Shown here: positions 1-35,200 of the stretch, one piece after another
Numbering within the stretch: the first letter of the stretch is position 1
How the letters are laid out: every line of letters starts with the position of its first letter
Sequence record: PX853108.1
Direction: 5' to 3' (one strand)
Source of the DNA: a phage
Length of the DNA: 64,000 nt
Notes under the pieces: generated by a model
Seen by the model: only the letters and a program-made list of their open reading frames with translations
Database searches by the model: none
What the model was told of the DNA's origin: nothing
Program-made: the position numbers and the translations under genes

Positions 1-1003
1 GTTTCTTAGGCATAGTGTCAATCATATCTGCTACTACCTGACGGTCTACATAAGCAATAGTGCATGGGTCAAGATAATCCAGGATTGATACGGATAAAAA
101 GCCAGATTTCTCATAATGGCTCCATAGCTCTTGTACCTTCTCCAGGTTACCTTCAATTTCCCCATATTCTGATGGGCCTTCATCGCAGAGTTCTCGCACA
201 GCTTCCACTAGGTCACGGTCGAAGTTACAACGACGCAGCATCTCACGTACTACCATCCCATCAATAGAGTGGGTGATGTTAGCAGAGAGCATACGAGTCT
301 TCTCTTCAGTACCCTGAACCATACGAGTGATATCGAATGGCTTACCTAAGAAGTTAACAGTCTGTACTTCAGGGACCATGACCTTAATGACAGCGTGGAA
401 GTTGTCAGGCAGTACCCATACGTAACGGTTGGCATCCGGGTTACCACATTGCAGTAAGAACTTGTTAAGTGCCCAAGGACCACTAGCAACAGTTTCCATT
501 ACATTCTCAAAAGTCTTGAGACGAATACCTTCACCGAATACTTCTTTAGGCTTGGCTTCTGAGCCGTAGAATGCAGTCATAACTGCCTGCTTAGTTTCAC
601 TACGTTTAATACGCGATGCTTCACCAAGGATGTCCAGCATCTTATGATAGATAACTGTGTAAGCATCACGACGTAATGGCTTACCATTCTCTCCCATGTA
701 ATTAACTACGTTACACAGTTCAGCAGCAGAACGGTCACCAGTCAGACAGGCCAGTAACTGCAAACCAGATGATGTAGCATCCAGGGCTACGGCATAACCA
801 ATAGGCTTACCTGCTTTCATATCTTTCCATGCATTTACACCTGCAAAGAACAGAGCAGAATCCTCTGCTTCATCTACCAGATTAAGCAGGTTAGCTTCGT
901 TCTCATCGAACCAGGCAATACGCTCATCCCATGTCTTTTTATCCAAGCCATAGTTATTGGCGATATCTACTTTCAGGTATTCACGAGCGGTTAACAGTTG
1001 CAT
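1..1003 (-). CDS. T7-like single-subunit RNA polymerase, catalytic (large) subunit of a split phage RNAP II; C-terminus runs off the window
   Basis: Minus-strand frame open from ATG at 1003 (RBS AAGGAA upstream, in-frame stop at 1034-1036) to window edge; translation carries T7-RNAP-like motifs AGKPIG, motif A ALDATSSGLQ, motif B KQAVMTAFYGS, motif C ITHSIDG. Not in supplied ORF track because it is truncated. Confidence 0.8.
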   Translation of the reverse strand, partial: MQLLTAREYLKVDIANNYGLDKKTWDERIAWFDENEANLLNLVDEAEDSALFFAGVNAWKDMKAGKPIGYAVALDATSSGLQLLACLTGDRSAAELCNVVNYMGENGKPLRRDAYTVIYHKMLDILGEASRIKRSETKQAVMTAFYGSEAKPKEVFGEGIRLKTFENVMETVASGPWALNKFLLQCGNPDANRYVWVLPDNFHAVIKVMVPEVQTVNFLGKPFDITRMVQGTEEKTRMLSANITHSIDGMVVREMLRRCNFDRDLVEAVRELCDEGPSEYGEIEGNLEKVQELWSHYEKSGFLSVSILDYLDPCTIAYVDRQVVADMIDTMPKK

Positions 1004-1060
1004 TTTATGTTCCTTTTGCTTCTTGGCTCCCCACTATGGAGAGCCTGCTTATTGGATGGA

Positions 1061-1306
1061 TTAGCCAGCATTAAATGATGATAATACTATTCCTGGTTCC
1101 ACACCTTCGGTGGCAATACCAATGTACTTAACTTCTACCTGTTCTGGTGAACTACACCAGCCTGACCATAGCTCGCCCCATTTGCCATCGGGGTTTATCT
1201 GACGTGCTTCCTCTTCGGTAGCAGCAGCTACCACAGCGGAATCATATGTATCCCACTCATTACGCTCATTCTGGCTAATAAGCCATAGTTTTAATAGCTT
1301 ACCCAT
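1061..1306 (-). CDS. hypothetical protein (81 aa) lying between the two RNAP II subunit genes
   Basis: ORF in track; same strand as flanking operon; no recognisable motif. Confidence 0.4.
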   Translation of the reverse strand: MGKLLKLWLISQNERNEWDTYDSAVVAAATEEEARQINPDGKWGELWSGWCSSPEQVEVKYIGIATEGVEPGIVLSSFNAG

Positions 1307-1619
1307 TTGAGATTAGTCCTCTTGGTTCGTATATGGATTTATTTACGGTTACGTTTAGCTTCAGCTTCGCGTTTCATTGCTTCATTGATACGCTTTAATA
1401 CCAACTCTCTATGGGCATAGAAGTCAGCTACTGCACGATGATTAATCATTGTTTACTAACCCTTTATCTTAGATGGTTACTACGTCAGCAGTTAATTTAT
1501 AAATAATGGTCTTATTGCTTGGATTGTTTGTCTTAAACAGCTTTTCGAAATGAATGCATTTTTCTAACGTACCGGAGTAAACACATTCTTCATTAACCCA
1601 TAGCTCATAGGAACCAATG

Positions 1620-2438
1620 TTAGTCTTCATTTACTAACTCCTTATCAGCGAACTCTAGTACAGCTTTGTTGTAGCTGGTTCCCTGATAGTTGATGTGGTA
1701 ACCACAGGCATAGGTACGCCCACGTTTGTCATATTTGTGAGCCAGCGAGAAGTTATTACCTTCTTTGGTCACTAGCTCCATTACTTCCTTAGCTGTACGG
1801 CTGTACTTCTCAAAGGCTTTAACACGTTTCTCGTAGTCCTGACGGGTTTCACCTTCTTTAGGTTTATCCATATTAGGACGGGAGTCTTTTACATAGTTAG
1901 CAACGTCCCAGTTAATACAGAGACGTTGATTGTTCATACGGTTGATGTGGTCAAGACAGACGTCCATCTCATGATGGTTCTTCTTGAGGATGATGCTACC
2001 TCTGCTTTCGTAGTAACCAGTATCACGATTACACTTAACAGGCTTAGGAGCACTTACGATAGGTAATGGATACTGGAATGCTTCCAGTTCCATCTGTACA
2101 TCTTCACTAATCTCATAGATAACACCGAACTTGTCGATGGTAGGGTCATAGTTGAAGCAGTCATTCTCTGCCATCTTGTACAGACAGTCAGCGATGTACT
2201 GAGCATCATCTGAGTGACTCATAAGAGAGCCAATCATAGTTTGGATGTCAGCACGTTTATGTAAGGCAATCTGCACCATTGCATCAATGAGCAGCTTATA
2301 ATCAATTTCTAAATAGGCAGCGAATGCCTTAAAGTCAATTTCTTCGGAGTCCTCGAATTCCTTCCTCATGCGAGGCAAGAGCTGGTTTTTATTGAATAGT
2401 TTTTCGAGTTGCTTCTGATGTTCAATAGATGAGTACAT
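1620..2438 (-). CDS. T7-like RNA polymerase small (N-terminal-equivalent) subunit of split RNAP II
   Basis: 272 aa; C-terminal segment YDKRGRTYACGYHINYQG aligns with T7 RNAP DWRGRVYAVSMFNPQG (DxxGR motif region); immediately downstream of hairpin promoter at 2464-2485. Confidence 0.7.
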   Translation of the reverse strand: MYSSIEHQKQLEKLFNKNQLLPRMRKEFEDSEEIDFKAFAAYLEIDYKLLIDAMVQIALHKRADIQTMIGSLMSHSDDAQYIADCLYKMAENDCFNYDPTIDKFGVIYEISEDVQMELEAFQYPLPIVSAPKPVKCNRDTGYYESRGSIILKKNHHEMDVCLDHINRMNNQRLCINWDVANYVKDSRPNMDKPKEGETRQDYEKRVKAFEKYSRTAKEVMELVTKEGNNFSLAHKYDKRGRTYACGYHINYQGTSYNKAVLEFADKELVNED

Positions 2439-2463
2439 CGCTTATTCTCCTAAATGTGATTAA

Positions 2464-2485
2464 TAACCAAAAGCTGCGGAGCAGC
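2464..2485 (-). promoter_or_regulatory. N4 virion-RNAP-type hairpin promoter (AACC-N4-GCTGC GGA GCAGC); predicted +1 at 2468
   Basis: 5-bp stem, 3-nt GGA loop, G at -8 and -11, CC at +1/+2 on template (plus) strand; same architecture as sites at 6918 and 7483. Confidence 0.6.
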
Positions 2486-2525
2486 TATTACCTAACGCTT
2501 AGTCCAAAAGTTAAAGTGACTTCAT

Positions 2526-2702
2526 TTATTGCTCTACTCTCATTGAAATCCAATTGTATAATTTACGCTTTGCATACTCTGCGTTAGCTTCAATTATTTC
2601 TCTGTCTTCTGGATCTTGAGAACCAGACCATGATAGAGCAACTTGTGCTGCTACATGTTTACGTATTAAGGATTGTAGTTGACTGCATTCTTTTTTAGTC
2701 AT
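2526..2702 (-). CDS. small hypothetical protein (58 aa)
   Basis: Manually translated ORF (below 60 aa cut-off of track); ATGA start/stop overlap with upstream gene 2699-3058. Confidence 0.3.
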   Translation of the reverse strand: MTKKECSQLQSLIRKHVAAQVALSWSGSQDPEDREIIEANAEYAKRKLYNWISMRVEQ

Positions 2703-3058
2703 GAGGAGGTTCCCCAGTAGTTGTAAGCATCACCTAAGTATTTACGCCATGCTTCTGGTAATAGCACGTTGCCAGTTACATTAATGAATTGGTATGGGTC
2801 TAAGTAATCATTACTCATGACTTTAAAGTCCCACTGTGGATTAGAAGATGCATAGGCAATGAAGCCCTCAATAAAGCCATAAATAGCACCCTCTTTGATA
2901 CGGTTACCATTGCCATCCTTTACCGGTATGGCAAAGCTATTGCCGTAATGACCATAGGCCATACCCCAGCGAGCACCGTGTTTCTTATAAGCTAATTTGG
3001 CAGCAGCATTAGTATGTTGCCCAAGTACATTGGTAGTGAATACTAAGATTTCTTTCAT
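2699..3058 (-). CDS. hypothetical early protein, possible small Rossmann-like fold
   Basis: 119 aa ORF in tightly packed minus-strand array; motif ILVFTTNVLGQHTNAAAKLAYKKHG; function unassigned. Confidence 0.45.
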   Translation of the reverse strand: MKEILVFTTNVLGQHTNAAAKLAYKKHGARWGMAYGHYGNSFAIPVKDGNGNRIKEGAIYGFIEGFIAYASSNPQWDFKVMSNDYLDPYQFINVTGNVLLPEAWRKYLGDAYNYWGTSS

Positions 3059-3255
3059 TTACATGCCTCTCTGTTGTAAGTATAAGCATCGTGTGTGGAC
3101 ATATTGTTATGATGACGAGTTACTTCTAAGTAAGTAAGAGCATATTCATGGTCACGTTGTTCTTTCTTGGTTCGGCAATGACCACATTTATCATCCCATT
3201 GGGATACATAGCCTTTACCACATTTGCATTGCTTATCCATTAGGATTCTCCACAA
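3055..3255 (-). CDS. Cys-rich zinc-ribbon-like small protein
   Basis: 66 aa; CxC and CxxC pairs (CKCGKG...CGHC); overlaps neighbours by 4 nt. Confidence 0.4.
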   Translation of the reverse strand: MWRILMDKQCKCGKGYVSQWDDKCGHCRTKKEQRDHEYALTYLEVTRHHNNMSTHDAYTYNREACK

Positions 3256-3613
3256 AGTAGTTATACATAGCTTTTACTAGCTTCTCTTTAATAACCTCAC
3301 CATGACAAGGTTTTGGATAACAGAAGCACTGTAAGGCTAATCCTTTCTCGTCAATGGCTTTATTACCCAGACGATTAAGTTCATCCAATACAACTGGATT
3401 CCCTTTATCAATCTGTTCTTGTAACCAGACTATATACTTAGCAATTACTTGCTCTCTGGTTCCATGTTTACCAATGACAAATGGATTACCTAATGGTGAA
3501 CCACGTCCAATATACTCACCTGATTTACCGTGATGTTTATTAACAATGATAATTGGACGGGCAGATACACCCAGTAAAGCATTGGTGTCATCACCTAATG
3601 ACATAATCTTCAT
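3233..3613 (-). CDS. DUF4326-like small protein (assignment from memory of motif)
   Basis: 126 aa; motif GRGSPLGNPF followed by CFCYPKPCHG; domain family recalled, not searched. Confidence 0.45.
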   Translation of the reverse strand: MKIMSLGDDTNALLGVSARPIIIVNKHHGKSGEYIGRGSPLGNPFVIGKHGTREQVIAKYIVWLQEQIDKGNPVVLDELNRLGNKAIDEKGLALQCFCYPKPCHGEVIKEKLVKAMYNYFVENPNG

Positions 3614-3924
3614 GGTTTAAGTACCTGGAATGGGAACACAGGACGTTTACTACGCCACTGGTTCATAGCTAATTCACTAGTTTCAGAACCATCATGTAAG
3701 TCATAGATAAATGAGATTACATAGTCTGGTTCTTCCGGGAAGTTCTCTGTAGAAAATGGTAGACCTGATTCTTTAAGGATAGGAATCAGTGGTGATTCAG
3801 CATTACAGTACAGAGTAAACTCTTCATTGAATGCTTGGCTTGTCTGAGATACATAATCAATATTACGCATCATCTTATCTACATCAGTAAATGTAGCATC
3901 ATGAACTACTAAAATAGTTTTCAT
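3610..3924 (-). CDS. hypothetical early protein
   Basis: 104 aa ORF, 4-nt overlap with neighbours. Confidence 0.45.
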   Translation of the reverse strand: MKTILVVHDATFTDVDKMMRNIDYVSQTSQAFNEEFTLYCNAESPLIPILKESGLPFSTENFPEEPDYVISFIYDLHDGSETSELAMNQWRSKRPVFPFQVLKP

Positions 3925-4112
3925 ACTGGCTCCTTGCCCGTAAATGTTACTACTTTTCCTGACATATTCCGTATGGTTACCTGTGCTGAGTTAACATCAG
4001 CAAATTGCTCTGCAACCCAGTTAAGCATCTCAGGGTCATTATTTAATTGTTTTTTAATCACAGTTTTACTATCTGCTGTTACTAAAGTGATTTCATAATT
4101 TTCAATATTCAT
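3921..4112 (-). CDS. hypothetical early protein
   Basis: 63 aa ORF, operon packing. Confidence 0.4.
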   Translation of the reverse strand: MNIENYEITLVTADSKTVIKKQLNNDPEMLNWVAEQFADVNSAQVTIRNMSGKVVTFTGKEPV

Positions 4113-4366
4113 ACTACTTTCTCCAGTGTTAGGTAGACGTTATTATCGACAATACTCAAATCACAGAAACCAATCTCTTCTTGTCTCCCAGAGGATACCC
4201 AGATATTGTTCTCCGTTAGCTTAGGCTTCTTAGAGAATCCTATTAATGAGGTATTAGCACTCTTATATTGACGAGGTAGTAATGCTATATACTTAACCCA
4301 ATGTGGTACTTGAATAGTATGTTTCATATATTCCACAGTCTTACCAGTAGGGTATGTAATAATCAT
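4109..4366 (-). CDS. hypothetical early protein
   Basis: 85 aa ORF, operon packing. Confidence 0.4.
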   Translation of the reverse strand: MIITYPTGKTVEYMKHTIQVPHWVKYIALLPRQYKSANTSLIGFSKKPKLTENNIWVSSGRQEEIGFCDLSIVDNNVYLTLEKVV

Positions 4367-4723
4367 TTAGTACCTCACAACATATACAGGTTTATTAAGC
4401 TTATTCATGATATCAATCATGTGCTTGGTTCCTTTGGATTTACCATCCCAGAAACATACAGCAGCATCTGCAAATTCACCCATTTCCTGGTTACGTATAT
4501 AACCAGCAGACTTTCTATGCTTATCCCAGTTAGCTGGGAAATTATGAATAGGCATTTTGTTATTAGCCCATAGGCTGTATGCAAGCATATCTGCTCCACG
4601 AGCCATACCACATACTAATTCAGGATTAGGGTCAATCTTACCTTTCTCCACTAAATCCATTAATACGGTAATCATTACTTGGATATTTACGAAGTCTCTG
4701 CCACCAGCTACTATTAGTTTCAT
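4367..4723 (-). CDS. SLOG/LOG-like (DUF2493-type) Rossmann-fold protein (assignment from memory of motif)
   Basis: 118 aa; MKLIVAGGRDF ... GMARGADMLAY ... FWDGKSKGTKHMI pattern typical of SLOG-superfamily small proteins. Confidence 0.45.
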   Translation of the reverse strand: MKLIVAGGRDFVNIQVMITVLMDLVEKGKIDPNPELVCGMARGADMLAYSLWANNKMPIHNFPANWDKHRKSAGYIRNQEMGEFADAAVCFWDGKSKGTKHMIDIMNKLNKPVYVVRY

Positions 4724-4941
4724 TTCTGATAACCTTCTATGAAGTTAGTACGACGAATAAGCTGAGTAGATGCCCTAACAGCCATCTGTTTGAACTCATC
4801 TTTGTGCTGATTTTCCAACACCTTAGCCCATTCTTCATGGTTCCGTCGTTTCTGTAGGATACGACTACACTTCTTATGATTAGCAACTCCTCTTCCTTTC
4901 TTACAGATTGGGCATATTCCATAATTAGTGCTGAACAACAT
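4720..4941 (-). CDS. zinc-finger-like small protein
   Basis: 73 aa; CPICKKG...HKKC motif. Confidence 0.4.
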   Translation of the reverse strand: MLFSTNYGICPICKKGRGVANHKKCSRILQKRRNHEEWAKVLENQHKDEFKQMAVRASTQLIRRTNFIEGYQK

Positions 4942-4946
4942 TTTGC

Positions 4947-5177
4947 TTACTCCTTGGTAATGTGATTGGCAGTATAGAAGTTATTAATCTCTGATTGGGT
5001 AGTATCAGCATAACCGGATACACCGGTTTCTTTATTAACCCATTTATCGAAGCTCTCACTGTATCCAGGCGTACTAACTTTTACCCATGTACTGGTTCCA
5101 AAGATTGTTTTCTTCTCTACTTCTGCACCAATACCACGTTCATTATCTGCAAATCGTATTACTTTATATTTAGCCAC
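4947..5177 (-). CDS. hypothetical early protein
   Basis: 76 aa ORF in array. Confidence 0.4.
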   Translation of the reverse strand: MAKYKVIRFADNERGIGAEVEKKTIFGTSTWVKVSTPGYSESFDKWVNKETGVSGYADTTQSEINNFYTANHITKE

Positions 5178-5478
5178 TTAGTGCCTCCATTAATATTTTA
5201 CGAATAACATTTACATCAGATTCAGTACCAATTAAACCAACAGGCTTACCTGTACTATCTGTTACAAAGGATGCAATCCTTTCCATCTCTGCTGTAATTA
5301 GCTTGTCACCACTAATAAGACGATTACGAAGGTAAGCTTCATAGGCTACTTCTATATCCTCTACTGTGGTTCTTTCATTACGAGCGAATGGATTACTTAA
5401 TGGGAATGGTAAGTGGATACGTATATTCCGGTCAGCTATCTTAGCTGAATGAGGAAGTATACAAATAATTTCATTCAA
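5170..5478 (-). CDS. hypothetical early protein
   Basis: 102 aa ORF in array. Confidence 0.4.
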   Translation of the reverse strand: MNEIICILPHSAKIADRNIRIHLPFPLSNPFARNERTTVEDIEVAYEAYLRNRLISGDKLITAEMERIASFVTDSTGKPVGLIGTESDVNVIRKILMEALSG

Positions 5479-5521
5479 GGTTATTTCTCCTATTTAAATA
5501 CATATCTAACTATTCAAGAAT

Positions 5522-5552
5522 AAAAAATAGGAGCCTCCTATTGGAGGACTCC
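5522..5552 (-). terminator. rho-independent terminator (minus strand)
   Basis: On minus strand CCUCC-AAUA-GGAGG hairpin followed by UAUUUUUUAUU. Confidence 0.5.
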
Positions 5553-5615
5553 CAGTTCTACTAATGCACCATAGGTTAACAGTACAAACATGGTTAATGT
5601 GATAGGCCAGTTCAT
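5538..5615 (-). CDS. candidate 25-aa hydrophobic peptide (MNWPITLTMFVLLTYGALVELGVLQ)
   Basis: Manually translated; start overlaps stop of upstream small ORF as ATGA; stop lies inside terminator stem. Confidence 0.2.
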   Translation of the reverse strand: MNWPITLTMFVLLTYGALVELGVLQ

Positions 5616-5743
5616 TTGAATGCATCCGGGTGATTGAAGGTAATAATCTTACGTACTGGTTCAGATGTCTGTTTCTTAGCAGCCAGTCTCTCCTTCATCT
5701 TCTGTACGTCAGATTTATTACCCATGATTAATGATTTACGCAT
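5612..5743 (-). CDS. candidate small basic protein (43 aa)
   Basis: Manually translated ORF; overlaps end of 5728-5910 ORF by 16 nt so start uncertain. Confidence 0.2.
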   Translation of the reverse strand: MRKSLIMGNKSDVQKMKERLAAKKQTSEPVRKIITFNHPDAFK

Positions 5744-5910
5744 GATTTAGTGCTCCACATAAAGTTAAAAGGTTTATTGTTACGTACAATTCTTACAACC
5801 ATTTGATAGCCATTGAGCTGCACAACACCATAGTGTCGTTTCTGTACACCAGTGTGATACCTACGAAAGATACACTCTTCAATGGCATCATCTATGTTAG
5901 TGAATATCAC
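5728..5910 (-). CDS. hypothetical early protein
   Basis: 60 aa ORF in track. Confidence 0.35.
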   Translation of the reverse strand: MIFTNIDDAIEECIFRRYHTGVQKRHYGVVQLNGYQMVVRIVRNNKPFNFMWSTKSCVNH

Positions 5911-5954
5911 TGGTTCCTCCGTAATATTGGCAGTTAAGCACAGGTGAATAACGT

Positions 5955-6107
5955 TTACACATCTCCACCTGGTTCATCTCTACCACGAGCATCACTCCCT
6001 ATGACTGCAAACATACCAATAATTACACCTACAGCTAATAACCATGGAAATGCAGCCACTAGCAGTATCATTAATAAAGTACACAGAATCTCTGCCAGTA
6101 GCTTCAT
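5955..6107 (-). CDS. candidate small membrane protein (50 aa, two hydrophobic segments)
   Basis: Manually translated MKLLAEILCTLLMILLVAAFPWLLAVGVIIGMFAVIGSDARGRDEPGGDV; RBS AAGGATAA upstream. Confidence 0.3.
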   Translation of the reverse strand: MKLLAEILCTLLMILLVAAFPWLLAVGVIIGMFAVIGSDARGRDEPGGDV

Positions 6108-6111
6108 AGCA

Positions 6112-6375
6112 TTATCCTTTGTGTAGTTTACGGATTTGTTTACGAGTAGGTTTAGCTACAAAGAAGTGGTCATAGCATTGACCATTCTCATCTTTTACAG
6201 ATACCTGCCAACGAGCATCATAAGTCATCTTACTACCGTACATGGCCATTATGTTAATCAGCCTAGTTGGATTATAACGGTTACATATTGTACGCATAAT
6301 GGTTACTCCTTCATCTAATATAAATCTATATCTATCTGGATACTGTTTCAGTACCCTTCGTCTAAAGATACTCAA
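6112..6375 (-). CDS. hypothetical early protein
   Basis: 87 aa ORF in track. Confidence 0.4.
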   Translation of the reverse strand: MSIFRRRVLKQYPDRYRFILDEGVTIMRTICNRYNPTRLINIMAMYGSKMTYDARWQVSVKDENGQCYDHFFVAKPTRKQIRKLHKG

Positions 6376-6398
6376 AAAGTAGAAATAGCTTATCGTCT

Positions 6399-6430
6399 AG
6401 TTAAAAATAAAAGACTCCCCGAAGGGAGTC
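6399..6430 (-). terminator. rho-independent terminator (minus strand), UUCG tetraloop
   Basis: GACUCCC-UUCG-GGGAGUC followed by UUUUAUUUUUAA, just downstream of gene 6441-6821. Confidence 0.6.
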
Positions 6431-6440
6431 TAGTGATTGA

Positions 6441-6821
6441 TTAGAAAGTCAGTTTACGAGCATATTTATTCTCGTCTGCTGGGATGTCAGCAGCCTCTGC
6501 TTTCACACGACGAAGTTGAACTTGCAGGTTAATGATACCTTCCTCACCTGGTTCCAGGTTCTGAGCATACGCGATTAACTGTTCCAGCAAGTCGTTCTGT
6601 GCACAACGCATAGCACGGAAGTCAGCATTGCTGCTATTAGTAGGCAGCGGTTCCTGAGTATCCAGTGGAATACCAGTAGGCAGTGAGATGAATTTCTCAT
6701 CATCAGAGCCTTCGTTAGCTACATAACCAATGTTCAGCCAGAACTGAGCTTTTGGTTTGTCAGTTTTAGCAGTGGTAGCAGCAGCGTTAGATTGACCGAA
6801 AGTGAATTTTTGAATAGCCAT
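6441..6821 (-). CDS. early protein (126 aa), first gene of a hairpin-promoter transcription unit
   Basis: ORF in track trimmed to internal ATG at 6821 with RBS GGAGAG; about 100 nt downstream of predicted +1 at 6922. Confidence 0.5.
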
Positions 6822-6917
6822 TTTGTACTCTCCAGATTTATGTGATTTACGGGTGAACTCGTCGGTGAGAACACCCAAACAAAAGGATAAAAGTTCAATG
6901 ATTAGTGGATGCATTTA

Positions 6918-6939
6918 CATCCTTTAGATGCGGAGCATC
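6918..6939 (-). promoter_or_regulatory. N4 virion-RNAP-type hairpin promoter (CATCC-TTTA-GATGC GGA GCATC); predicted +1 at 6922
   Basis: 5-bp stem, GGA loop, -8G/-11G, +1/+2 CC; near-identical layout to recalled N4 P2 CATCC-AAAA-GAAGC GGA GCTTC. Confidence 0.65.
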
Positions 6940-7009
6940 TTTCTTTTAAAGATAGTGCGAGTTAGTTAACTTAAAGTAGATAGTTATCTACTTTTGACTA
7001 TCTATCTAA

Positions 7010-7040
7010 TGTTCAAAACAGGAGACTCCGAAGAGCCTCC
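7010..7040 (-). terminator. rho-independent terminator (minus strand), UUCG tetraloop
   Basis: GGAGGCUC-UUCG-GAGUCUCC followed by UGUUUUG, downstream of gene 7049-7372. Confidence 0.55.
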
Positions 7041-7048
7041 TATGTGAC

Positions 7049-7372
7049 TTATTCTTTAGTCAGGATGTCGATGACTTTGGAATATTCTGCGTTATAGATA
7101 CGAGCGTTCTCTGAATCCTTGCAGAAGTCCTCGATACTTTTCTTACGCAGAGTCTCAGTCATAGCTGTTTCCTCTGCCAGTTTATTAACAAAGGTATGCA
7201 TTTCTAATTTAGTACGAATGGCTTGTTTCTCTGCCATCGTACTAACATATGAATTAAGCATACCTACTGCTTTAGTTGCTGTGCTGAATGTATCTGCAAC
7301 AGTAGTAGCAGCTGAGTTAACAGTACCAAGTAAAGTTCCTGCGGTCATACGTACAGTAGCTTGAGTAGTCAT
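7049..7372 (-). CDS. early protein (107 aa), first gene downstream of outermost hairpin promoter
   Basis: ORF in track trimmed to internal ATG at 7372 with RBS GGAGAT; about 115 nt downstream of predicted +1 at 7487. Confidence 0.5.
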   Translation of the reverse strand: MTTQATVRMTAGTLLGTVNSAATTVADTFSTATKAVGMLNSYVSTMAEKQAIRTKLEMHTFVNKLAEETAMTETLRKKSIEDFCKDSENARIYNAEYSKVIDILTKE

Positions 7373-7482
7373 GATGATATCTCCAATAGTTAATGAATAA
7401 TGAGGTTGCCTGTGGATGCACAGGCACATCGTAAGGGATACATGTCCAATGGCTCATGAGATAAGGAGCTTACGATCTCGCA

Positions 7483-7504
7483 TATCCGTAACATGCGGAG
7501 CATG
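7483..7504 (-). promoter_or_regulatory. N4 virion-RNAP-type hairpin promoter (ATATCC-GTAA-CATGC GGA GCATG); predicted +1 at 7487
   Basis: 5-bp stem, GGA loop, -8G/-11G, +1/+2 CC on template strand. Confidence 0.65.
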
Positions 7505-7960
7505 TAGACGAACGAAGTTCGTCAAAAATGTTTTATAAAGATGTAGGCGCGTGCGCAAGCCGAAGGCTTGCGTGCGTGCCGAAGATATGCACATAAGCCC
7601 ATGGGCTTGCTTGCAAGCCTAGTGTGTGTAACGTGTAAGGTGGGGTAGGGTAGTGGCTACACGGTCAACATACCGGGGGGGATGGTTGAGTGTAAGGGTG
7701 TAGCCCTAGGTGTAACACTATAGCCATACATAGCTATCACAATTTTGACATGCAAAAATATTATAGGCACTATCTCTATAAGCAGATAACTTTGAGGTAC
7801 TAACCTGAAAGATGGTTGAGGTATCTATCCTCTATTCATCATAGCGTTTGATACTTAAAACCTCATACAGCTTACCATTTACAAGTAATGGTCCTCCCAC
7901 TTCTATGAAAGCCAGACTGTGTACTATCACTGGTTCAGGTAAGCCCTTGACTGTTACATA
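7505..7960. other. non-coding, locally GC-rich, hairpin-dense region; candidate genome terminus / terminal-repeat or origin region
   Basis: No ORF; hairpins GACGAAC-GAA-GTTCGTC (7507-7523), GCAAGCC-GAA-GGCTTGC (7555-7571), AAGCCC-ATG-GGGCTT; G-run ccggggggg; sits just upstream of the outermost early promoter. Confidence 0.3.
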
Positions 7961-7967
7961 CCACATG

Positions 7968-8297
7968 TTAATCCTTATACGCAGTTAAATAGGAGGGAGC
8001 ATACACCAAGTGAGGGGTTTGTAATTCATTCGTAATACCAAAGGTTAGAGAGTACTTATCCGTATTCACATGCCAGGGGGAGTACATGTAAGAGGACCAT
8101 GGTAGTTCCTTTCCTGGTTCAAGAACTTCTACAATAGTTTCCTTATTTAGTAATAAAGCTAATCCTTTAACTTCGTGTAGTGTTTGTTCATCCGGTACTA
8201 GGATAATAGGAGTGAGCCTACCTGGTACAAGGTCTTGTAAGGTTGTATGGGTAGTGGGGTTAGAACTACGAGCATAACCTATCTTAGTAAGTTTCAT
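7968..8297 (-). CDS. paralog family member 1 (109 aa), unknown function
   Basis: Shares core IILVPDEQTLHEVKGLALLL ... VEVLEPGKELPW ... SPWHVNTDKY with six neighbouring ORFs. Confidence 0.55.
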   Translation of the reverse strand: MKLTKIGYARSSNPTTHTTLQDLVPGRLTPIILVPDEQTLHEVKGLALLLNKETIVEVLEPGKELPWSSYMYSPWHVNTDKYSLTFGITNELQTPHLVYAPSYLTAYKD

Positions 8298-8331
8298 TTA
8301 ATATCCTAAGTGCTTGGGTTAGTAGCATATG

Positions 8332-8703
8332 TTAACTTTTTGTGATTACATCCCAATGAGGTGGCATATTAATATCCCAAGGAAGCATCTTTCCAGATTC
8401 AAGTATTCTTACAGACCTGAAGGAGTTACCTTCTTTTACCATACTGGTTCTTACTGTTACTGGTAAGAAGATATGAAAGTAGTCACCTTCTGGTGCAAGG
8501 TAAGTATCCCCTTCATTGAGAATAACTATCTTTGCATTGCTGTTAGTAAGAAGTTTATGCCCCTGTGCAAAGTCTGCTAACTCTCCTGGTTCCATTATTA
8601 GCGTTGGAGTTCCATAGGTCATAATGTGGATGATTGCTTTCTCCGGTTCTGAGGAATAGTGCAGTAAGTCTGTACCATTCATACCTAAGAGCTTAACGTT
8701 CAT
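8332..8703 (-). CDS. paralog family member 2 (123 aa), unknown function
   Basis: Divergent copy: KIVILNEGDTYLAPEGDYFHIFL ... VRILESGKMLPW. Confidence 0.5.
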   Translation of the reverse strand: MNVKLLGMNGTDLLHYSSEPEKAIIHIMTYGTPTLIMEPGELADFAQGHKLLTNSNAKIVILNEGDTYLAPEGDYFHIFLPVTVRTSMVKEGNSFRSVRILESGKMLPWDINMPPHWDVITKS

Positions 8704-8742
8704 GTTTTAGTACCTGTATCTGATAAGGAGATGTGTTTAGTT

Positions 8743-9027
8743 TCATTGCCTTTCCTTGTAGATTGGGGTGTTACCCTCGAAGGATAGGATGTACTTGTCT
8801 GTATTGAGATGCCAAGGACTAAAGCTACCCTGCCAGGACATAGGTGTTCCTGGTTCAAGTAGATGTACTTCTGCCTTCTTACTGTATAAGAAAAGTAATC
8901 CTTGTAATTCATGCAGAGACTGCTCATCTGGAACCAAGATAAGTACATCAGCGTCTAGATTCGCTATATCTTTATGACGGTAGTAGTCATCCTCATGTAC
9001 TGCTGAATAAATTTTACTGATAACCAT
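8743..9027 (-). CDS. paralog family member 3 (94 aa), unknown function
   Basis: LILVPDEQSLHELQGLLFLY ... HLLEPGTPMSW ... SPWHLNTDKY. Confidence 0.55.
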   Translation of the reverse strand: MVISKIYSAVHEDDYYRHKDIANLDADVLILVPDEQSLHELQGLLFLYSKKAEVHLLEPGTPMSWQGSFSPWHLNTDKYILSFEGNTPIYKERQ

Positions 9028-9347
9028 TAGAGGCTCTCGTCGCTAGATAAATATGAGGTAGAAGGATAGAGGGTAATAAGTCTACCTGTTAGGGTAGTAA
9101 CTACCATAGGCTCAGCAGTAGATAGTACGAATACCTGTGCAAACTCAGATATCTCAACTGATGTATCTATCTTAATGAAAGTGATGGGTATGCCTAACAT
9201 TAGACATGTACCTATGAACTCATCAGCCTCTTCATTTGGTTCATATAGGATAGTAGTTCCATCCAGCTCACCATTTAAACAATCCCGTTTAGTTGCTTTA
9301 CTGCGATAGCAACTTGTACTTAGTGCAACTAATGAGTAGAAGTGCAT
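9027..9347 (-). CDS. paralog family member 4 (106 aa), divergent
   Basis: TILYEPNEEADEFIGTCLMLG ... IKIDTSVEISEF; RBS AAGGAAG; stop/start overlap with members 3 and 5. Confidence 0.45.
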   Translation of the reverse strand: MHFYSLVALSTSCYRSKATKRDCLNGELDGTTILYEPNEEADEFIGTCLMLGIPITFIKIDTSVEISEFAQVFVLSTAEPMVVTTLTGRLITLYPSTSYLSSDESL

Positions 9348-9350
9348 AAC

Positions 9351-9620
9351 TTACTTCCTTACATAGTAGTAACGGTATTCACCCTTCTTATAACGACTCT
9401 CCCATTGGTAGTCATCAGATACCATCATGTATGGGATAGGGTCATTGGCGTTATAGTTGGTATAGACAGAAGGAGGGATAATACATACAACCTTACGGTC
9501 ATTACCTGCTAGAAAGAGTTGTCCCCTTACTTCATGGTAGTCCTCTAAGGTAGGAACCAGGATTACTTGATGGGGGTTGCTGTTCATGACTTCTTCTAAA
9601 GTGAAGTCAGTTGTGTACAT
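9351..9620 (-). CDS. paralog family member 5 (89 aa after start trimming)
   Basis: VILVPTLEDYHEVRGQLFLA; start moved to ATG at 9620 with RBS AGGGAG to avoid 110-nt overlap. Confidence 0.45.
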   Translation of the reverse strand: MYTTDFTLEEVMNSNPHQVILVPTLEDYHEVRGQLFLAGNDRKVVCIIPPSVYTNYNANDPIPYMMVSDDYQWESRYKKGEYRYYYVRK

Positions 9621-9630
9621 AGGCTCCCTT

Positions 9631-10029
9631 TCAGCAAAACTGGGGATGGTCATTATGAATTTCATGATGGATTTTCCTTCCTTTAGGAATGGGTCTGAAG
9701 TAAATGGATAGTGTTTTATTAAAGACGTTATGGTCAACAATCATTTCCCAGCCAGGTACTTTATAGAATCTGATTCCTGGAAAGAATGTTTCGAAGTTCG
9801 AGTACTCAGTAAGATCATACACCTTTGGTTCAGTAAGTATCTCAGTGTTAAGTTGCAGGTTGGATAAGAAAAAAGAACCAATAATCTCGTGTGATTCCTC
9901 GCAATCAGGAAAGAATACTGATTGCCTCGGGGATAGCATCTTACTTACTACCTCTGGTTCCTCTAGGTAATATGGTTCTTGCTTGCGTAGTACACCGGTA
10001 ATATCAATATCAAAAGCGTAGATGCTCAT
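9631..10029 (-). CDS. paralog family member 6 (132 aa), divergent
   Basis: VFFPDCEESHEIIGSFFLSN ... TEILTEPKVYDL. Confidence 0.45.
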   Translation of the reverse strand: MSIYAFDIDITGVLRKQEPYYLEEPEVVSKMLSPRQSVFFPDCEESHEIIGSFFLSNLQLNTEILTEPKVYDLTEYSNFETFFPGIRFYKVPGWEMIVDHNVFNKTLSIYFRPIPKGRKIHHEIHNDHPQFC

Positions 10030-10039
10030 AATTGCATTC

Positions 10040-10081
10040 CTCCAGAAAAAGAAATGGGGTAGAGCCTCTCGACTCTACCCC
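10040..10081 (-). terminator. rho-independent terminator (minus strand)
   Basis: 9-bp stem GGGGUAGAG/CUCUACCCC followed by AUUUCUUUUUCU. Confidence 0.5.
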
Positions 10082-10229
10082 TTACCGTTTTCTATCACGG
10101 GTCAGTTCATCACCCTAGATACATGTGTATCGTTAGCCTACTAGGTAGGAAAGGAGCCGGGCAACCCTGACTGTAGAAGTTATTAACTCTTTACGAGTAC
10201 CGCCACTGTCTACTAGGCGGCATGACTAA

Positions 10230-10520
10230 TCACATCGTCACCGTCATCCGAACACTGTCTTTGCTTCGCCTGACGGAGACACTATGAGGTAATTTTGTGA
10301 AGAACACAAGAGAGGAATGACGTTTTTCTAAAGAGTAAGTTTCTCTTGGTTCTAAGATTTTAATGCCGGGTCGATTCTCTAAAAGCATCATCCCAGCTAA
10401 TTCATGATAGGTATCTTCATCGTGAGTAATGATAATATCATTTGAAAGAATACCAGCTTTGGTGTGGTCTAGTTCTTTGTATTCATCTTTAGAGTCGTGG
10501 ACTCTCATATAGATTCTCAA
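10230..10520 (-). CDS. paralog family member 7 (96 aa)
   Basis: IIITHDEDTYHELAGMMLLE ... IKILEPRETY. Confidence 0.5.
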   Translation of the reverse strand: MRIYMRVHDSKDEYKELDHTKAGILSNDIIITHDEDTYHELAGMMLLENRPGIKILEPRETYSLEKRHSSLVFFTKLPHSVSVRRSKDSVRMTVTM

Positions 10521-10691
10521 AGGTTACTCCTTTTGGGAATAGGGTCATCGGAACATTACATACTATTTAGTATCATGAACTTTTTCTATATCATGACTAA
10601 AGTGTAACTGTATGGTATCGTTTCTTCAAGGGGTAACTCATCCCAAGAAAAGAATCTTCTTTAATAGACATAACTTTGTAGCGAGATAAGT

Positions 10692-11381
10692 ATGAGTGAA
10701 CTAACTAAGCAGCAGATTATTAATGCCTTACCTGCTAACTTCAAAAACAGTGTGACCCAGGAGTTGGTAGACACAATCAACAACATAACCCAAGACCAAC
10801 TGGTTGCTGAGTCCTTCCGTGAAAACTTTATCTCCTACTCTGGTGTAATGAAGGAAGGTAAGTTTAAGACACAGGACTACATGAATGCAGTTCAGTATGT
10901 GACTTACAAACACATGGGTTACTCAAATAAGGAAGCCTACTTCAAGACATTCCCTAACCGACAAGCAGAACTTGTTGCACGAGGAACCAGTGAGAAAGAC
11001 ATTAGTGCTTATGTATCCGCTTACCACAGAGGTAAGCTAGTTAACCTCATCATGGAACAAAGTTTGGTTCCAGTGTGGATTGTGAACCAGGACAACTATC
11101 AGAAGGCAATCAACGTTCAGGTTGAACTGATGACTACAGCAGCAAGTGAAAAAGTAAGATGTGATGCAGCTAACTCTATCCTTACTCACTTAGCTAAACC
11201 GAAAGACCAGGTAACGAATATCAATCTGGACTTGAGAGAGAACTCTGGATTAACTGACCTCAAGGCAACACTTGCTGCATTAGCTGAACAGCAAATTAAC
11301 GCAATCAATAGTGGTGTACCTACCAAAGAGGTTGCTGGTTCTAAACTAGTACGTGCAGATGAGGACATTACAGATGTCTGA
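10692..11381 (+). CDS. hypothetical protein upstream of terminase; possible small terminase subunit
   Basis: 229 aa; position immediately 5' of large terminase with ATG/TGA overlap; no diagnostic motif. Confidence 0.3.
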   Translation: MSELTKQQIINALPANFKNSVTQELVDTINNITQDQLVAESFRENFISYSGVMKEGKFKTQDYMNAVQYVTYKHMGYSNKEAYFKTFPNRQAELVARGTSEKDISAYVSAYHRGKLVNLIMEQSLVPVWIVNQDNYQKAINVQVELMTTAASEKVRCDAANSILTHLAKPKDQVTNINLDLRENSGLTDLKATLAALAEQQINAINSGVPTKEVAGSKLVRADEDITDV

Positions 11382-12963
11382 GTTAATTAAACAGGAACTA
11401 GATGAATGGCTAGACCAGGTGGATTACTCCCACCTTAATTCGTCTAACTATGTTCCTAGTCAGTTTGCTCTTACCTTTGCCAACTTTATTAAGTTGGTTA
11501 ATGGTAAAGAGGGTGAATCCAACAAAACACCTCCAGTTCACCTGAAGATGCTGGATAAGATGATTAGTCCTAACCAGTATGTAGTTAACCTGTGCTTCCG
11601 TGGTGCAGGTAAGACTGCTGTGTTTATGGAATACTTTACTTTGTTCCTGGCAGTGTTTGGACACTTACCAAGTCTGGGTAAAGTAGAAGGGATGATTTAC
11701 GTATCTGACTCAATGGATAACGGTGCTAAGTCTGCACGTAAGAACATTGAGTTTCGTTATAAGAATAGTGAGTTCCTACAGCAATGGATACCTGAAGCTA
11801 CCTTTACGGATAACCTATTAGAGTTTCGTAATGTAGAAGGACATCGACTTGGTGTTAAGCTGTTCGGTGCTAAGACAGGTCTTCGTGGTACGAAGATATA
11901 TGGTAAACGCCCAACACTCTGTGTACTGGATGACTTGATTAGTGATGGTGATGCTAACTCCAAGACTAGCATGGAAGCTATTAAGGATACTGTTTATAAA
12001 GGTGTGAACCATGCTCTTGACCCAACCCGTCGTAAAGTAATCTTCAACGGTACTCCCTTTAATAAGGAAGACATTATCATTGAAGCGGTAGAGTCTGGTG
12101 CATGGGATGTCAACGTATGGCCTGTGTGTGAGAAGTTCCCTTGTAGTAGGGAAGAATTTCAGGGTGCATGGGATGACCGTTTCTCTTACGACTATATTAA
12201 AGCCCAATATGACATGGCAGTTAAGACGGGTAAGCTGGCAGGCTTCTATCAGGAACTTATGCTCCGTATTAGCTCTGAAGATGAGAGACTGGTTCAGGAT
12301 AGTGAAATTAGATGGTATAGCAGACAGCAACTATTAAGGATGAAGTCCTGCTACAACTATTACATTACAACTGACTTTGCTACTTCGGAGAAACAGACCA
12401 GTGACTACAGTGTCATATCAGTTTGGGCTTATAGTTCTAATGGAGATTGGTTCTGGGTTGATGGTGTGGCTAATCGTCAGCTTATGGATAAAAACTTTGA
12501 TGATCTGTTCCGTCTGGTTCAAGAATACCAACCACAAAACGTTGGAGTCGAAATCACAGGACAACAGGGTGGATTCATCTCTCTCCTTCAGAAAGAAATG
12601 ATTAACCGTAATGTCTTCTTTAACTTTGCATCCTCCGAGGGTGGTAAGCCTGGCATACGTCCTGTAACCTCTAAGCTGTCACGTTTTAACCTGGTAGTTC
12701 CTTGGTTCAAAGCTGGTAAGATGTACTTCCCAGAAGAGTTGAGAGATTCAACTATCATGGGTCTGTTCATGGGGCAGATTAAACTAGCTACCATTAATGG
12801 AATCAAAGGTAAGGATGACTGTATTGATACTATCTCTATGCTGGGTTATCTCAATCCTTGGAAACCACAAGCAGGTATGACTATGGTGGATAACAAGGGT
12901 GACCCAATGTGGGATGACGAAGAAGAAGATAGTGTTAACCCACTACGTTCATACATTGTGTGA
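11353..12963 (+). CDS. terminase large subunit
   Basis: 536 aa; Walker A-like CFRGAGKT and Walker B-like LCVLDDL; head of structural operon; alternative start at 11374. Confidence 0.7.
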   Translation: MQMRTLQMSELIKQELDEWLDQVDYSHLNSSNYVPSQFALTFANFIKLVNGKEGESNKTPPVHLKMLDKMISPNQYVVNLCFRGAGKTAVFMEYFTLFLAVFGHLPSLGKVEGMIYVSDSMDNGAKSARKNIEFRYKNSEFLQQWIPEATFTDNLLEFRNVEGHRLGVKLFGAKTGLRGTKIYGKRPTLCVLDDLISDGDANSKTSMEAIKDTVYKGVNHALDPTRRKVIFNGTPFNKEDIIIEAVESGAWDVNVWPVCEKFPCSREEFQGAWDDRFSYDYIKAQYDMAVKTGKLAGFYQELMLRISSEDERLVQDSEIRWYSRQQLLRMKSCYNYYITTDFATSEKQTSDYSVISVWAYSSNGDWFWVDGVANRQLMDKNFDDLFRLVQEYQPQNVGVEITGQQGGFISLLQKEMINRNVFFNFASSEGGKPGIRPVTSKLSRFNLVVPWFKAGKMYFPEELRDSTIMGLFMGQIKLATINGIKGKDDCIDTISMLGYLNPWKPQAGMTMVDNKGDPMWDDEEEDSVNPLRSYIV

Positions 12964-32223: not shown

Positions 32224-32283
32224 ACTGGCTTACTGTAGAGTAAGTTACCTATATACGATATAAGTTTGAATAGGAAACATGCT

Positions 32284-35200
32284 ATGTCAACATTTGACCG
32301 TCTGGCAGGTTTCGCAGACAGCATCACTAATGCTAAGCAAGTCGATGTCTCTACTGCAACCTCCCGGAAGCAAGCTGCACAGGGGCAAAGCCCTTTCCAA
32401 TTAACCCCAGATAATGCTTACAATCTACAGACTGGACGAGTAGGTAATCTTGGAATCGGTGCATACGAACCAGGTTCACTTCAGGCAGATTTCACTCAAG
32501 CCTCCCCCTTAGAAATCATTAATAAATATGGTAATGAGCAAGGTCTACAGATTCTTAATAGTCGAGCTAATGCTGCTGATGCTGTACGTCAGGACTTATC
32601 TAAACAACGTACTAACGCAGAAGCATTTGGCGATATCCTTTCTGGTGTTGGTCTTGGTGTTGCTAATACCCTTGGGGGCATTGCTGCTCTTGGCACAGGC
32701 TTGGTCAATGATAATGCCGGGGCATCCATTGCTTCCGGTCTTGACTGGTTGAATAAAGGTGTACACAACCTACAGTCCGATGCACTGAATGCTCGCCGTA
32801 ATGTAGTACAGAACCAGAACGTAATATCTGCACAGGAAAATGAGAAACTCTATAAGCAAGATATTGCTAAAGGAGAAAGCGAACTCGTTGCTTCCCTGTC
32901 TCGCATTGGTCGTGATGCTTACGATTCTGTTGCTAATACCCTGTCTAACGGCATGGCTGCTACTGATGGTATTGCTGAAGGTGTAGGTTCTCTGTTTACT
33001 GGTGGCCCATTAATCCGTGGTGTATCTGCACTCGGTAAGGTAATGGTAGGTGGAGATAAAGCTGTTAAGGGTATTACCTTAGCTGCTGAGTTAGGTTCAC
33101 GTCCTGCACGGATTGCACAGTCTGCTGGTCGTGTTGCTGCACCTGCTATAGCAATTGGTGGTATGGAAGCTGGTGGTGCATACCAACAGACTGCTAATGA
33201 AATTATGGAAATGCCATTCAGTGAACTGGCTGCTAAATCTCCAGTATACCAACAGCATATTAAAGATGGTTTATCTCCTGAAGAAGCACGTCGTCAGACT
33301 GCATCTGAAACAGGTATTACTGCTGCTGGCTTAACTGCTCCAGTTGCTGCTCTTACTGGTCCACTGGTATCCAAGTTTGAACTTAACCCACTCAAGGTAG
33401 GTTCACTGGCTGGTGCTGGTTCTAACATGCTGCGTGAGACTGTAGAAGAAGGTATCCAGTCTGGTACAAGTCAGTTCGCACAAAACACTGCAATCAAGGA
33501 AAATGTTGATGCATCTCGTGACATCCTCAAAGGTGTAGGCGAACAAACTGGTCTTGGTGCATTGTATGGCTTTGGTTCTGCTGGGGTTGCTCAAGCTCCT
33601 GGTGCAACTGTTAAGGCTGCTGGTGCTGCCGTTGGTCCTGCTGTACGTACTACCCTGGCTGGTGCTTCTTTGGCTGGTAAGGCACTAGCAAAAGTAGCCT
33701 CCCCTATTACTAACATCCTGGTTCAGCGTGGTGAAGAAGTAGCTAAACGTAACGAACAGGCATCTCCTGTATCTGATGCTACGGTTAATGCTGCTGCACA
33801 GGAAGCTACTGCTCAGGCAGAACAGGCCCAGGCAACCGTACAGGAAGCAGTAGATGCAATGGATATTTCTCCAGAAGAGAAAGCTGCTGCTACCCAGTAT
33901 GCTGCTGACTTAACTCAGGTAATGAAGTTTGATCCAGTAGAACTGGAACAAGCTAGCCCTACAGTCCGTGAAGCTGTTTCTGGTTCCACTAACCGTGTTG
34001 AAGCTATTCAGAAGATGGCTGACCTGGTTAATACTGCCGAAGACCCTAACGTTCAAATGGAAGCTGCAATCCAGATGTACGACAACATCATGTCTATGGA
34101 TAGCTTCATTAACCGTGACCCAGGTGCTCTGGCTAATCTGGAACAAGGCTCTCCTGCTGCTAATATCGTTGACCAATTCTCTGGCCTGATGGCTAACGTT
34201 CAGAATACACCGAAAGTACTTCGTGCATTCCGTGCTATTCATTCCATGATTCAGGAACAGGCAGAAGCAGGTAAACTGAAAGCTACTGAAGAAGCTAACC
34301 AAGCCCAGGCAAACAATATTGCCATGGCTGCTGATATGTCTCCAGAAGTACTGGATGCAGATTCAGTAAACATGGTTCTGAAACATGCAAGTGAAGGTAA
34401 GATTACACTGGGGAATCGTCAGCGTGCTGCCCTGCAATCTGCTGCTGCCTTGTTACAGGGTGCACGAGAATTTGACGCTAAAGCAGAAGAACTAGGCTTA
34501 CGTCCTCAAGACATTGTTAGTAAACAGATTAAAACCGACGAGTCTCGTTCTAATGAAGGCCAGTACTCTGCGTTGCAACATGCTAAACGCATTCGTTCTG
34601 CGTACAACTCTGGTAACTTCGATTTGGCTTCCGCTTATCTCGACGACTTTATGAAGTTCGCCCAGCACATGCAGAATAAGGTCGGAGCGTTGAATGAGCA
34701 TCTGATTTCTGGGAATGCGGATAAGAATAAGTCTGTCCATTATCAGGCTCTTACTCCCTCCCGTGAATGGGTACGTAGTCGTACTGGCCTCGGTGTCAAT
34801 CCGTATGATACCAAGTCTGTTAAGTTTGCCCAGCAAGTAGGACTGGAAGCCAAGACCGTAGCTGATATTGCTAACGCACTTGCTACGGCTTACCCGGAGC
34901 TTAATGTTTCTCATGTTAAGGTTACCCCATTGGATTCCCGTTTGGACAAGCCTGCTGCCCAAGTAGTTAAAGAGTTCCGTCAGGGCAATCTTGATGCTGC
35001 TCAATCCCAACAGACCAATGAACCAGTGAATCAGGTTGATGAATCTCCTGTTACAAAACAGGAACCAGTTACCCCTACTGTACAGACTAAACCCTCTGTT
35101 AGTGAAGCTGTTAAAACAGAACCTACTATTAAAGAGTCTAAACCACAGACTGCAAAAGAACCTGAGAACCAGTCTGAAAAACAGGATGCTGTTGAACAGC

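Follow-up and report, generated by a model that had tools for sequence, protein, structure and literature searches.

Where, and by which polymerase, does transcription of the early genes begin in the phage of sequence record PX853108.1? The stretch of this record that was analysed, referred to here as the window, is 64 000 nucleotides (nt) long and carries on its plus strand three short inverted repeats, at 2464–2485, 6918–6939 and 7483–7504 (sites 1, 2 and 3), each ahead of a gene on the minus strand. The initial annotation described them as hairpin promoters with the architecture recognized by the virion RNA polymerase (vRNAP) of phage N4. Our analysis leads to the same view: the three sites are probably (at a probability of about 0.9) early promoters of a G7C-like (Gamaleyavirus) relative of N4, read by a single-subunit RNA polymerase that is packaged in the virion. 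This reading is supported because the sites match the mapped N4 promoters in sequence and position and because the cognate polymerase is conserved. The phage almost certainly starts infection in the same way as N4.

Sequence and geometry of the three hairpin sites

All three hairpins can be read directly on the plus strand, which would serve as the template. Site 1, a predicted N4 P3-type promoter (2464–2486), has the sequence TAACCAAAA-GCTGC-GGA-GCAGC at 2464–2485. Its stem-loop, A-GCTGC-GGA-GCAGC-T, spans 2472–2486, with the guanines at −8 and −11 at 2476 and 2479, and the predicted +1 is C2468, from which transcription would run toward lower coordinates. Site 2, a predicted P2-type promoter (6918–6940), reads CATCCTTTA-GATGC-GGA-GCATC at 6918–6939; the stem-loop A-GATGC-GGA-GCATC-T occupies 6926–6940, −8G is at 6930 and the predicted +1 is C6922, giving a predicted transcript that begins 5′-GGAUGUAAAUG. 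Site 3, a predicted P1-type promoter (7483–7504), reads TATCCGTAA-CATGC-GGA-GCATG, with the stem-loop CATGC-GGA-GCATG at 7492–7504, −8G at 7495 and the predicted +1 at C7487.

A perfect stem of 5 base pairs (bp) closed by the 3-nt loop GGA is present in three of three sites, and an extra A–T pair lengthens it to 6 bp at sites 1 and 2. When positions are counted from +1 at 2468, 6922 and 7487, every site has G at −8, C at −9, G at −10, G at −11 and A at −12, in agreement with the guanines at −8 and −11 that had been proposed relative to a CC start. The heptamer GCGGAGC is centred at −11 in each. The CC dinucleotides lie at 2467–2468, 6921–6922 and 7486–7487 and are followed by a spacer of 4 nt, which in the sequence puts +1 exactly 8 nt from −8G.

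The combination is rare. The 9-mer TGCGGAGCA occurs three times in the window, always on the plus strand, against an expectation of 0.27, and none of 100 shuffled sequences reached three copies. The full layout (CC, four arbitrary nucleotides, and GCGRAGC enclosed by three further complementary pairs) was found three times, compared with 0.006 expected under a model of independent, identically distributed bases and a mean of 0.001 in 2000 first-order shuffles. The motif is restricted to the template strand of the early region. When both strands of the whole window were scanned for hairpins in which a perfect 5-bp stem encloses a 3-nt G-N-A loop closed by C–G, five were found, all on the plus strand between 2473 and 7569: the three sites and two GAA-loop hairpins that lack the heptamer. 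The other GCGRAGC heptamers, at 1370, 10269 and 17017 on the minus strand and at 49046 on the plus strand, were considered as additional promoters and rejected, as they have no CC and only zero or one flanking pair and are not hairpins. When folded as single-stranded DNA, each of the three sites has the hairpin given above as its minimum-energy structure (z = −2.3 to −3.7).

Comparison with the N4 promoters

The promoters of N4 are conserved from −17 to +1 and have a GC-rich heptamer centred at −11 with flanking inverted repeats and a 3-nt loop (PMC4496689, PMC13492108). The inverted repeat on the template strand forms a stem of 5–7 bp with a loop of 3 nt, and the heptamer consists of −8G, −9C, −10G, a purine at −11, −12A, −13G and −14C (PMC4496689). 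The non-conserved stem bases are required only to pair, and the four spacer bases are not contacted but act as a ruler that sets the start eight nt downstream of −8 (PMC4496689). This description fits all three sites of the window, including the non-A spacers TTTA at site 2 and GTAA at site 3.

On the N4 template strand, P1 reads TGTCCATAA-GTTGC-GAA-GCAAC about 50 nt before gp1, P2 reads CATCCAAAA-GAAGC-GGA-GCTTC just before gp2 (559–580 of the N4 record, minus strand) and P3 reads TTACCAAAA-GCTGC-GGA-GCAGC before gp15. The sequence that the initial annotation gave for N4 P2 (CATCC AAAA GAAGC GGA GCTTC) is an exact match to the N4 record, and the alignment with P1–P3 that it proposed as a check shows agreement in both sequence and position. 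Site 1 is nearly identical to N4 P3: the sequence upstream of gp15 is TTACCAAAAGCTGCGGAGCAGCT at N4 P3 and TAACCAAAAGCTGCGGAGCAGCT at site 1, with two base differences between −17 and +4 (the upstream TAACC/TTACC and the flank). Site 2 has the CATCC start region and the heptamer in common with N4 P2, whereas the spacer (TTTA rather than AAAA) and one stem pair (GATGC rather than GAAGC) differ. Site 3 differs from N4 P1 in the loop (GGA rather than GAA) and the stem (CATGC rather than GTTGC); its distance from the genome end is about 223 nt and its leader is 115 nt long, compared with about 104 nt and 47 nt for N4 P1. Common to the promoters of both phages are the template-strand hairpin with a 5-bp core stem and a 3-nt G-R-A loop, the heptamer GCG(G/A)AGC, the +1 C situated 8 nt from −8G and predicted transcripts that begin with GG. 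The downstream genes are also the same: P1, P2 and P3 of N4 precede gp1, gp2 and gp15/16, and sites 3, 2 and 1 precede their respective homologues.

The virion RNA polymerase

The predicted reader of the three hairpins is encoded on the plus strand at 32284–43038 (3584 amino acids from the ATG, within an open reading frame, ORF, of 32266–43038). It is 67% identical to N4 gp50 overall and 70.5% identical in the polymerase domain, and it matches the solved structures of N4 vRNAP with E = 0. In N4 vRNAP, Arg119 and Trp129 read −11G, Lys114 reads −10G, and Asp901 and Arg904 read −9C/−10G and −8G (PMC4496689). All five of these base-reading residues are kept in the window protein, as are Lys268, Lys849, Lys850 and the catalytic Asp559 and Asp951, each in an identical local sequence. 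The earlier assignment of a vRNAP is supported by both the overall identity and these contact residues, and the giant ORF can be regarded, as judged from its sequence, as a functional N4-type virion RNA polymerase. T7-type polymerases resemble N4 vRNAP in their homologous fold, with a specificity loop and an intercalating hairpin, and in recognition from −17 to −5 (PMC4496689). T7 promoters, however, are double-stranded and are read by sequence, whereas N4-type promoters are extruded single-stranded hairpins.

Extrusion in N4 is driven by supercoiling and gyrase and is activated by the host single-stranded DNA-binding protein (SSB) (PMC4496689). From the analysis we infer the actual start points, the extrusion of the hairpins, their dependence on SSB and gyrase and the efficiency of the terminators in this phage as follows. 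The left genome end would enter the cell first, and negative supercoiling by gyrase would extrude each inverted repeat as a cruciform. Host SSB would then melt the hairpin on the non-template strand, while the unusually stable GC-GGA-GC triloop hairpin of the template strand would stay intact. The polymerase would read −11G, −10G, −9C/−10G and −8G through the residues named above and start with GTP on the template C eight nt from −8G, at 2468, 6922 and 7487. Transcription would proceed leftward in window coordinates into gp15–gp16 (RNAPII), gp2 and gp1, and the gp1 and gp2 units would end at intrinsic terminators with UUCG loops, which are presumably leaky.

Conservation and covariation in related genomes

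The region 2000–8000 of the window aligns with Gamaleyavirus (G7C-like, N4-related) phages of Escherichia, Shigella and Klebsiella at about 90–94% identity over about 70–80% of its length, and the giant ORF is about 94% identical to that of Gamaleyavirus phages. These values place the window in Gamaleyavirus, as a G7C-like, N4-related coliphage. Its orientation is the reverse complement of that of the N4 record, with the homologues of N4 genes found by tblastn on the minus strand. The physical left end of the genome lies at approximately 7700–7715 (no strand assigned), as determined from alignments with relatives and from the left ends of N4 and G7C: for records of relatives that begin at the left terminus the alignment reaches about 7709, the conserved N4/G7C terminal sequence aligns to 7625–7712, and we place the end at about 7710. 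The whole early region therefore lies no more than 7.7 kb from this inferred end.

Early regions were compared in nine genomes: N4, pSb-1, CU10EC, K57alpha1.2, G7C, Mimir124, ECBP1, SP5M and the IMG/VR contig UViG_3300006879_000003. Syntenic hairpins are present in all nine, with three or four per genome. Site 1 is conserved in all of the relatives examined, and 26 nt of it are identical to the CU10EC site. The hairpin of site 3 is identical to that of pSb-1, ECBP1, Mimir124 and SP5M, although the flanks differ.

To avoid selecting for stems, every GCGRAGC heptamer in the fetched stretches was listed before its surroundings were considered, and this is the only unbiased count. Three further complementary pairs flank the heptamer in 33 of 36 instances from the nine genomes, and in all 31 of those on the template strand that have CC at +1/+2; the three heptamers without full stems are all on the non-template strand, where most heptamers lack the pairs. 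Eight different triplets occupy −5 to −7 (GCT, GAT, CAT, GAA, GTT, GAC, GGT and AAC), and the complementary partner is always present. The heptamer columns, on the other hand, are invariant in 25 promoter sequences from ten phages, apart from G/A at −11. In a covariation alignment (A1), whose sites had been selected for their stems, 25 cells are changed on both sides of the three variable pairs and none is unpaired. An invariant core with a compensated outer stem is the pattern expected of a structure that is read through a fixed core. The comparison lends support to the published rule for N4, in which recognition is confined to the heptamer, −8G and the spacing, and the outer stem need only pair, as it does in all eight compensated variants.

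Other N4-like phages offer parallels. Klebsiella phage KP8 has four predicted promoters (P1–P4) of the same architecture (PMC6950046), and in these, as in the Gamaleyavirus relatives, consensus and placement are as in the window. Pectobacterium N4-like phages have three predicted promoters of such form (PMC6027278). In Pseudomonas phage LUZ7, nine early start sites were mapped by ONT-cappable-seq, most of them at N4-like hairpins and some without (PMC9163698). The LUZ7 hairpins resemble those of the window in having a stem of at least 4 bp, a conserved 3-nt loop and a preference for G as the starting nucleotide, 13–14 nt from the hairpin centre (PMC9163698); in the window the loop centre is 11 nt from +1. 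LUZ7, however, is a member of another subfamily, and its sequence consensus is not the same. The three sites are new instances of one of the best-characterized classes of phage promoter, in a phage that shares about 94% identity with known Gamaleyaviruses, and they leave the knowledge of N4-type transcription unchanged. Their value lies in a sound annotation of the early region of a new G7C-like coliphage, giving the direction of transcription, probable start points and two terminators.

A fourth hairpin built around this heptamer is found in some relatives, at 503–515 in G7C and at 7022–7034 in SP5M. The SP5M site has a canonical CC start and precedes an extra ORF of 68 amino acids; in the G7C site, +2/+1 are CG rather than CC. 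Members of the genus thus do not all have the same number of promoters; the window has three. No promoter is annotated at the hairpins of G7C, pSb-1, ECBP1, SP5M, Mimir124, CU10EC or K57alpha1.2 in the fetched stretches. In the record of Klebsiella phage vB_Kpl_K57alpha1.2 (OY979416.1), the early-gene region carries, for example, the labels primase, SSB and 'virion RNA polymerase'; the feature table seems to be shifted relative to the sequence, because the deposited annotation does not fit the sequence that underlies it.

Alternative explanations

Several observations count against the promoter interpretation or narrow it. The start points in this phage are read from sequence rather than from transcripts, and no transcript data for any Gamaleyavirus were found in the literature; a search for published promoter maps of G7C-like phages, which was partly unspecific, returned only the prediction table for KP8. 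Alignment A1 was built from sites picked for having stems. The flanks of site 3 are non-canonical, its GTAA spacer and its leader being unlike those of the relatives. Lys267 in the β-intercalating hairpin is Asn in the window vRNAP, the sole change among the residues checked. Finally, the RNA-like strand of site 1 forms a weak terminator-like hairpin followed by the U-run UUUUGG, so that a second role is possible there.

One alternative is that the hairpins are structural signals in the DNA, involved in replication priming, in recombination at module junctions or in the control of ejection, and that transcription starts elsewhere. Such signals would explain why hairpins persist while the flanks vary, as is the case for site 3 and for the P3-type sites in K57alpha1.2, SP5M and Mimir124, and they would accommodate the further GAA-triloop hairpins stacked beside site 3. 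The N4 orthologues, however, are promoters proven both biochemically and structurally (PMC4496689, PMC13492108), and the fixed CC at +1/+2 and the orientation of the genes fit initiation. The neighbouring GAA hairpins represent a different class because they lack the heptamer, and any activity as recombination junctions would come on top of promoter function rather than replace it. We consider this explanation very improbable.

Slightly less probable still is a function at the level of RNA, in which the hairpins are intrinsic terminators or processing sites of upstream transcripts and not promoters. A terminator scan did flag the minus strand of site 1 (AGCUGC-UCC-GCAGCU followed by UUUGGUUAUU) as well as the plus strand of site 2. 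In the direction of the genes, however, only site 1 has a U-run; the tails of sites 2 and 3 are AAAGGAUG and UUACGGAU, and terminators at these two sites were rejected for want of a U-tail toward the genes. The stems are weak (5–6 bp with triloops), and dedicated terminators with folding energies of −18 and −14 kcal/mol already close the gp1 and gp2 units. Moreover, the strictly conserved GGA loop, −8G and the CC spacing would not be needed by a terminator but are read by vRNAP. An origin as chance palindromes in an AT-rich phage genome has a negligible probability: although perfect 5-bp stems that enclose a 3-nt loop number 97 on each strand of the window, the full layout (about 0.006 expected) was found three times on one strand, at syntenic positions and kept in nine other genomes, and chance is excluded because the 9-mer and full-layout counts far exceed expectation and because of the heptamer-first count in the relatives.

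Transcription units, early genes and terminators

With the three sites taken as promoters, the genes that they would serve can be identified by comparison with N4. The first early gene is the gp1 homologue (7049–7372, minus strand; 107 amino acids), which is 67% identical to N4 gp1 by tblastn (match 7372–7061). Its start codon is at +116 of the predicted site 3 transcript and is preceded by the Shine–Dalgarno (SD) sequence GGAGAU. Site 1 precedes the homologue of gp15, the RNAPII small subunit (1620–2438, minus strand; 272 amino acids; 66% identity, match 2432–1629), with the start codon at +31 of the predicted transcript and the SD sequence AGGAGA. The homologue of gp16, the RNAPII large subunit (2–1003, minus strand; 67% identity over residues 1–333), forms the downstream part of the same unit and is cut by the window edge; since gp16 continues past this left edge, the third unit ends outside the window.

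The arrangement at site 2 is less simple. The homologue of gp2, a cofactor of RNAPII, is a long ORF of 157 amino acids (6441–6914, minus strand; tblastn match 6914–6444) with 68% identity over all 161 amino acids of N4 gp2. Its ATG at 6914 is at +9 of the predicted transcript and has no SD sequence, whereas a second in-frame start at 6821, at +102, is preceded by GGAGAG and would give a form of 126 amino acids. The hydrophobic N-terminal extension that separates the two starts (31–33 codons, ending …SGEYK) is in frame in N4, in seven of eight other relatives and in the window; among the relatives its length varies without loss of frame and it contains no stops. In K57alpha1.2 the P2-type site is followed by a different gene. 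The P2-type transcripts ahead of gp2 are predicted to begin with GGAUG or GGAUA. Because the extension is conserved in frame and N4 gp2 aligns from residue 1, the real leader of gp2 may be only 8 nt long and without an SD sequence, and the SD-preceded ATG may yield a second, shorter form. Membrane association of gp2 has been reported for N4 (PMC4496689), and the extension might be connected with it.

Intrinsic terminators follow both gp1 and gp2 on the minus strand, and the two units that had been described as closed by UUCG-tetraloop terminators are indeed so closed. The terminator after gp1 (7041–7022) is GGAGGCUC-UUCG-GAGUCUCC-UGUUUUG with an 8-bp stem and an RNA folding energy of −18.2 kcal/mol (z = −4.4), and it has a counterpart in N4 at about 500–520. 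That after gp2 (6431–6412) is AGACUCCC-UUCG-GGGAGUCU-UUUAUUUUU, also with an 8-bp stem, and folds with −14.1 kcal/mol (z = −4.2).

Parts of the initial annotation have to be qualified. It placed each site 30–115 nt upstream of a gene with a good ribosome-binding site, which agrees with starts at +31, +102 and +116 but not with the long form of gp2, which starts at +9 without an SD sequence. It also held that the three promoters define the early transcription units. The direction of transcription and the downstream genes are in accord with this, but about 20 small ORFs on the minus strand between 6375 and 2526, that is from the terminator at 6412 to site 1, have no hairpin promoter of their own. 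Their expression therefore requires read-through of the gp2 terminator or middle promoters, and the three sites consequently do not define all of the early units. Across 1–12000, σ70-like sites are about three times rarer than in shuffled sequences (12 compared with 34.3 ± 7.1), as would be expected if the host polymerase did not serve this region, and terminator-like sites are about three times more common (17 compared with 6).

A replacement module at site 3 and the left genome end

In all of the GenBank relatives examined the canonical P1 hairpin abuts the terminal sequence TGTAACGTGT and lies 39–47 nt before gp1. Site 3 is displaced from this place: its leader is longer by about 88 nt, and about 120 nt of additional sequence lie upstream of the hairpin. 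It is carried on a module of about 230 nt (approximately 7400–7625) that was found elsewhere only in the IMG/VR contig UViG_3300006879_000003: the segment 7380–7640 is shared with this contig at about 90% identity and in the same arrangement (a pattern scan of IMG/VR returned this one contig), while in GenBank the segment has no Gamaleyavirus match and matches only over 70 nt in Erwinia phage MIF8. The canonical P1 place (about 7585–7625) is occupied by GGCTTGC-TT-GCAAGCC, with palindromic parts AAGCCCATGGGCTT and GGCTTGCTTGCAAGCC and without the GCGRAGC heptamer; it looks as though a new promoter module had arrived and the ancestral P1 had then decayed or been replaced. The module is made up of the hairpin, a long leader partly shared with MIF8, a phage of another genus, and a stack of GAA-triloop hairpins upstream. 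In a broader reading, which we regard as rather unlikely, this arrangement, with a non-promoter hairpin left at the ancestral P1 position, would mean that vRNAP promoter hairpins and their flanks are exchanged as cassettes between schitovirus genera; the extra triloop hairpins near the first-entering genome end might then modulate extrusion or the loading of the polymerase.

The gp1 leader (7372–7487, as minus-strand RNA) is 115 nt long, compared with 39–47 nt in N4 and the G7C-type relatives. Within it, 70 nt at 7406–7475 share 82% identity with the sequence that precedes a gp1-like gene in MIF8, an Efbeekayvirus (1501–1573 of the stretch compared). A hairpin in this part of the leader shows a compensatory change, GCCTGTG/CACAGGC in the window and GCATGTG/CACATGC in MIF8. 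The global fold of the 115-nt leader is no better than that of shuffled sequences (z = −0.5), with a single stable local hairpin of 8 bp, and an Rfam scan of 1–12000 gave no match at E ≤ 1.

Three further hairpins lie between site 3 and the genome end, none of which contains the vRNAP heptamer: GACGAAC-GAA-GTTCGTC at 7507–7523; a hairpin with 16-nt arms at 7546–7561 and 7565–7580, of which 13 of 16 positions are Watson–Crick complementary, and a GAA loop; and GGCTTGC-TT-GCAAGCC at 7604–7619. The two with GAA loops were considered as promoters and rejected, as −8 is A or C rather than G; at 7507–7523, in addition, the template base 8 nt downstream of −8 is G and not C. The related IMG/VR contig keeps the hairpins at 7507–7523 and 7604–7619 but not that at 7546–7580. 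As single-stranded DNA, the whole of 7488–7630, with the site 3 hairpin included, folds far better than shuffled sequences (z = −6.2).

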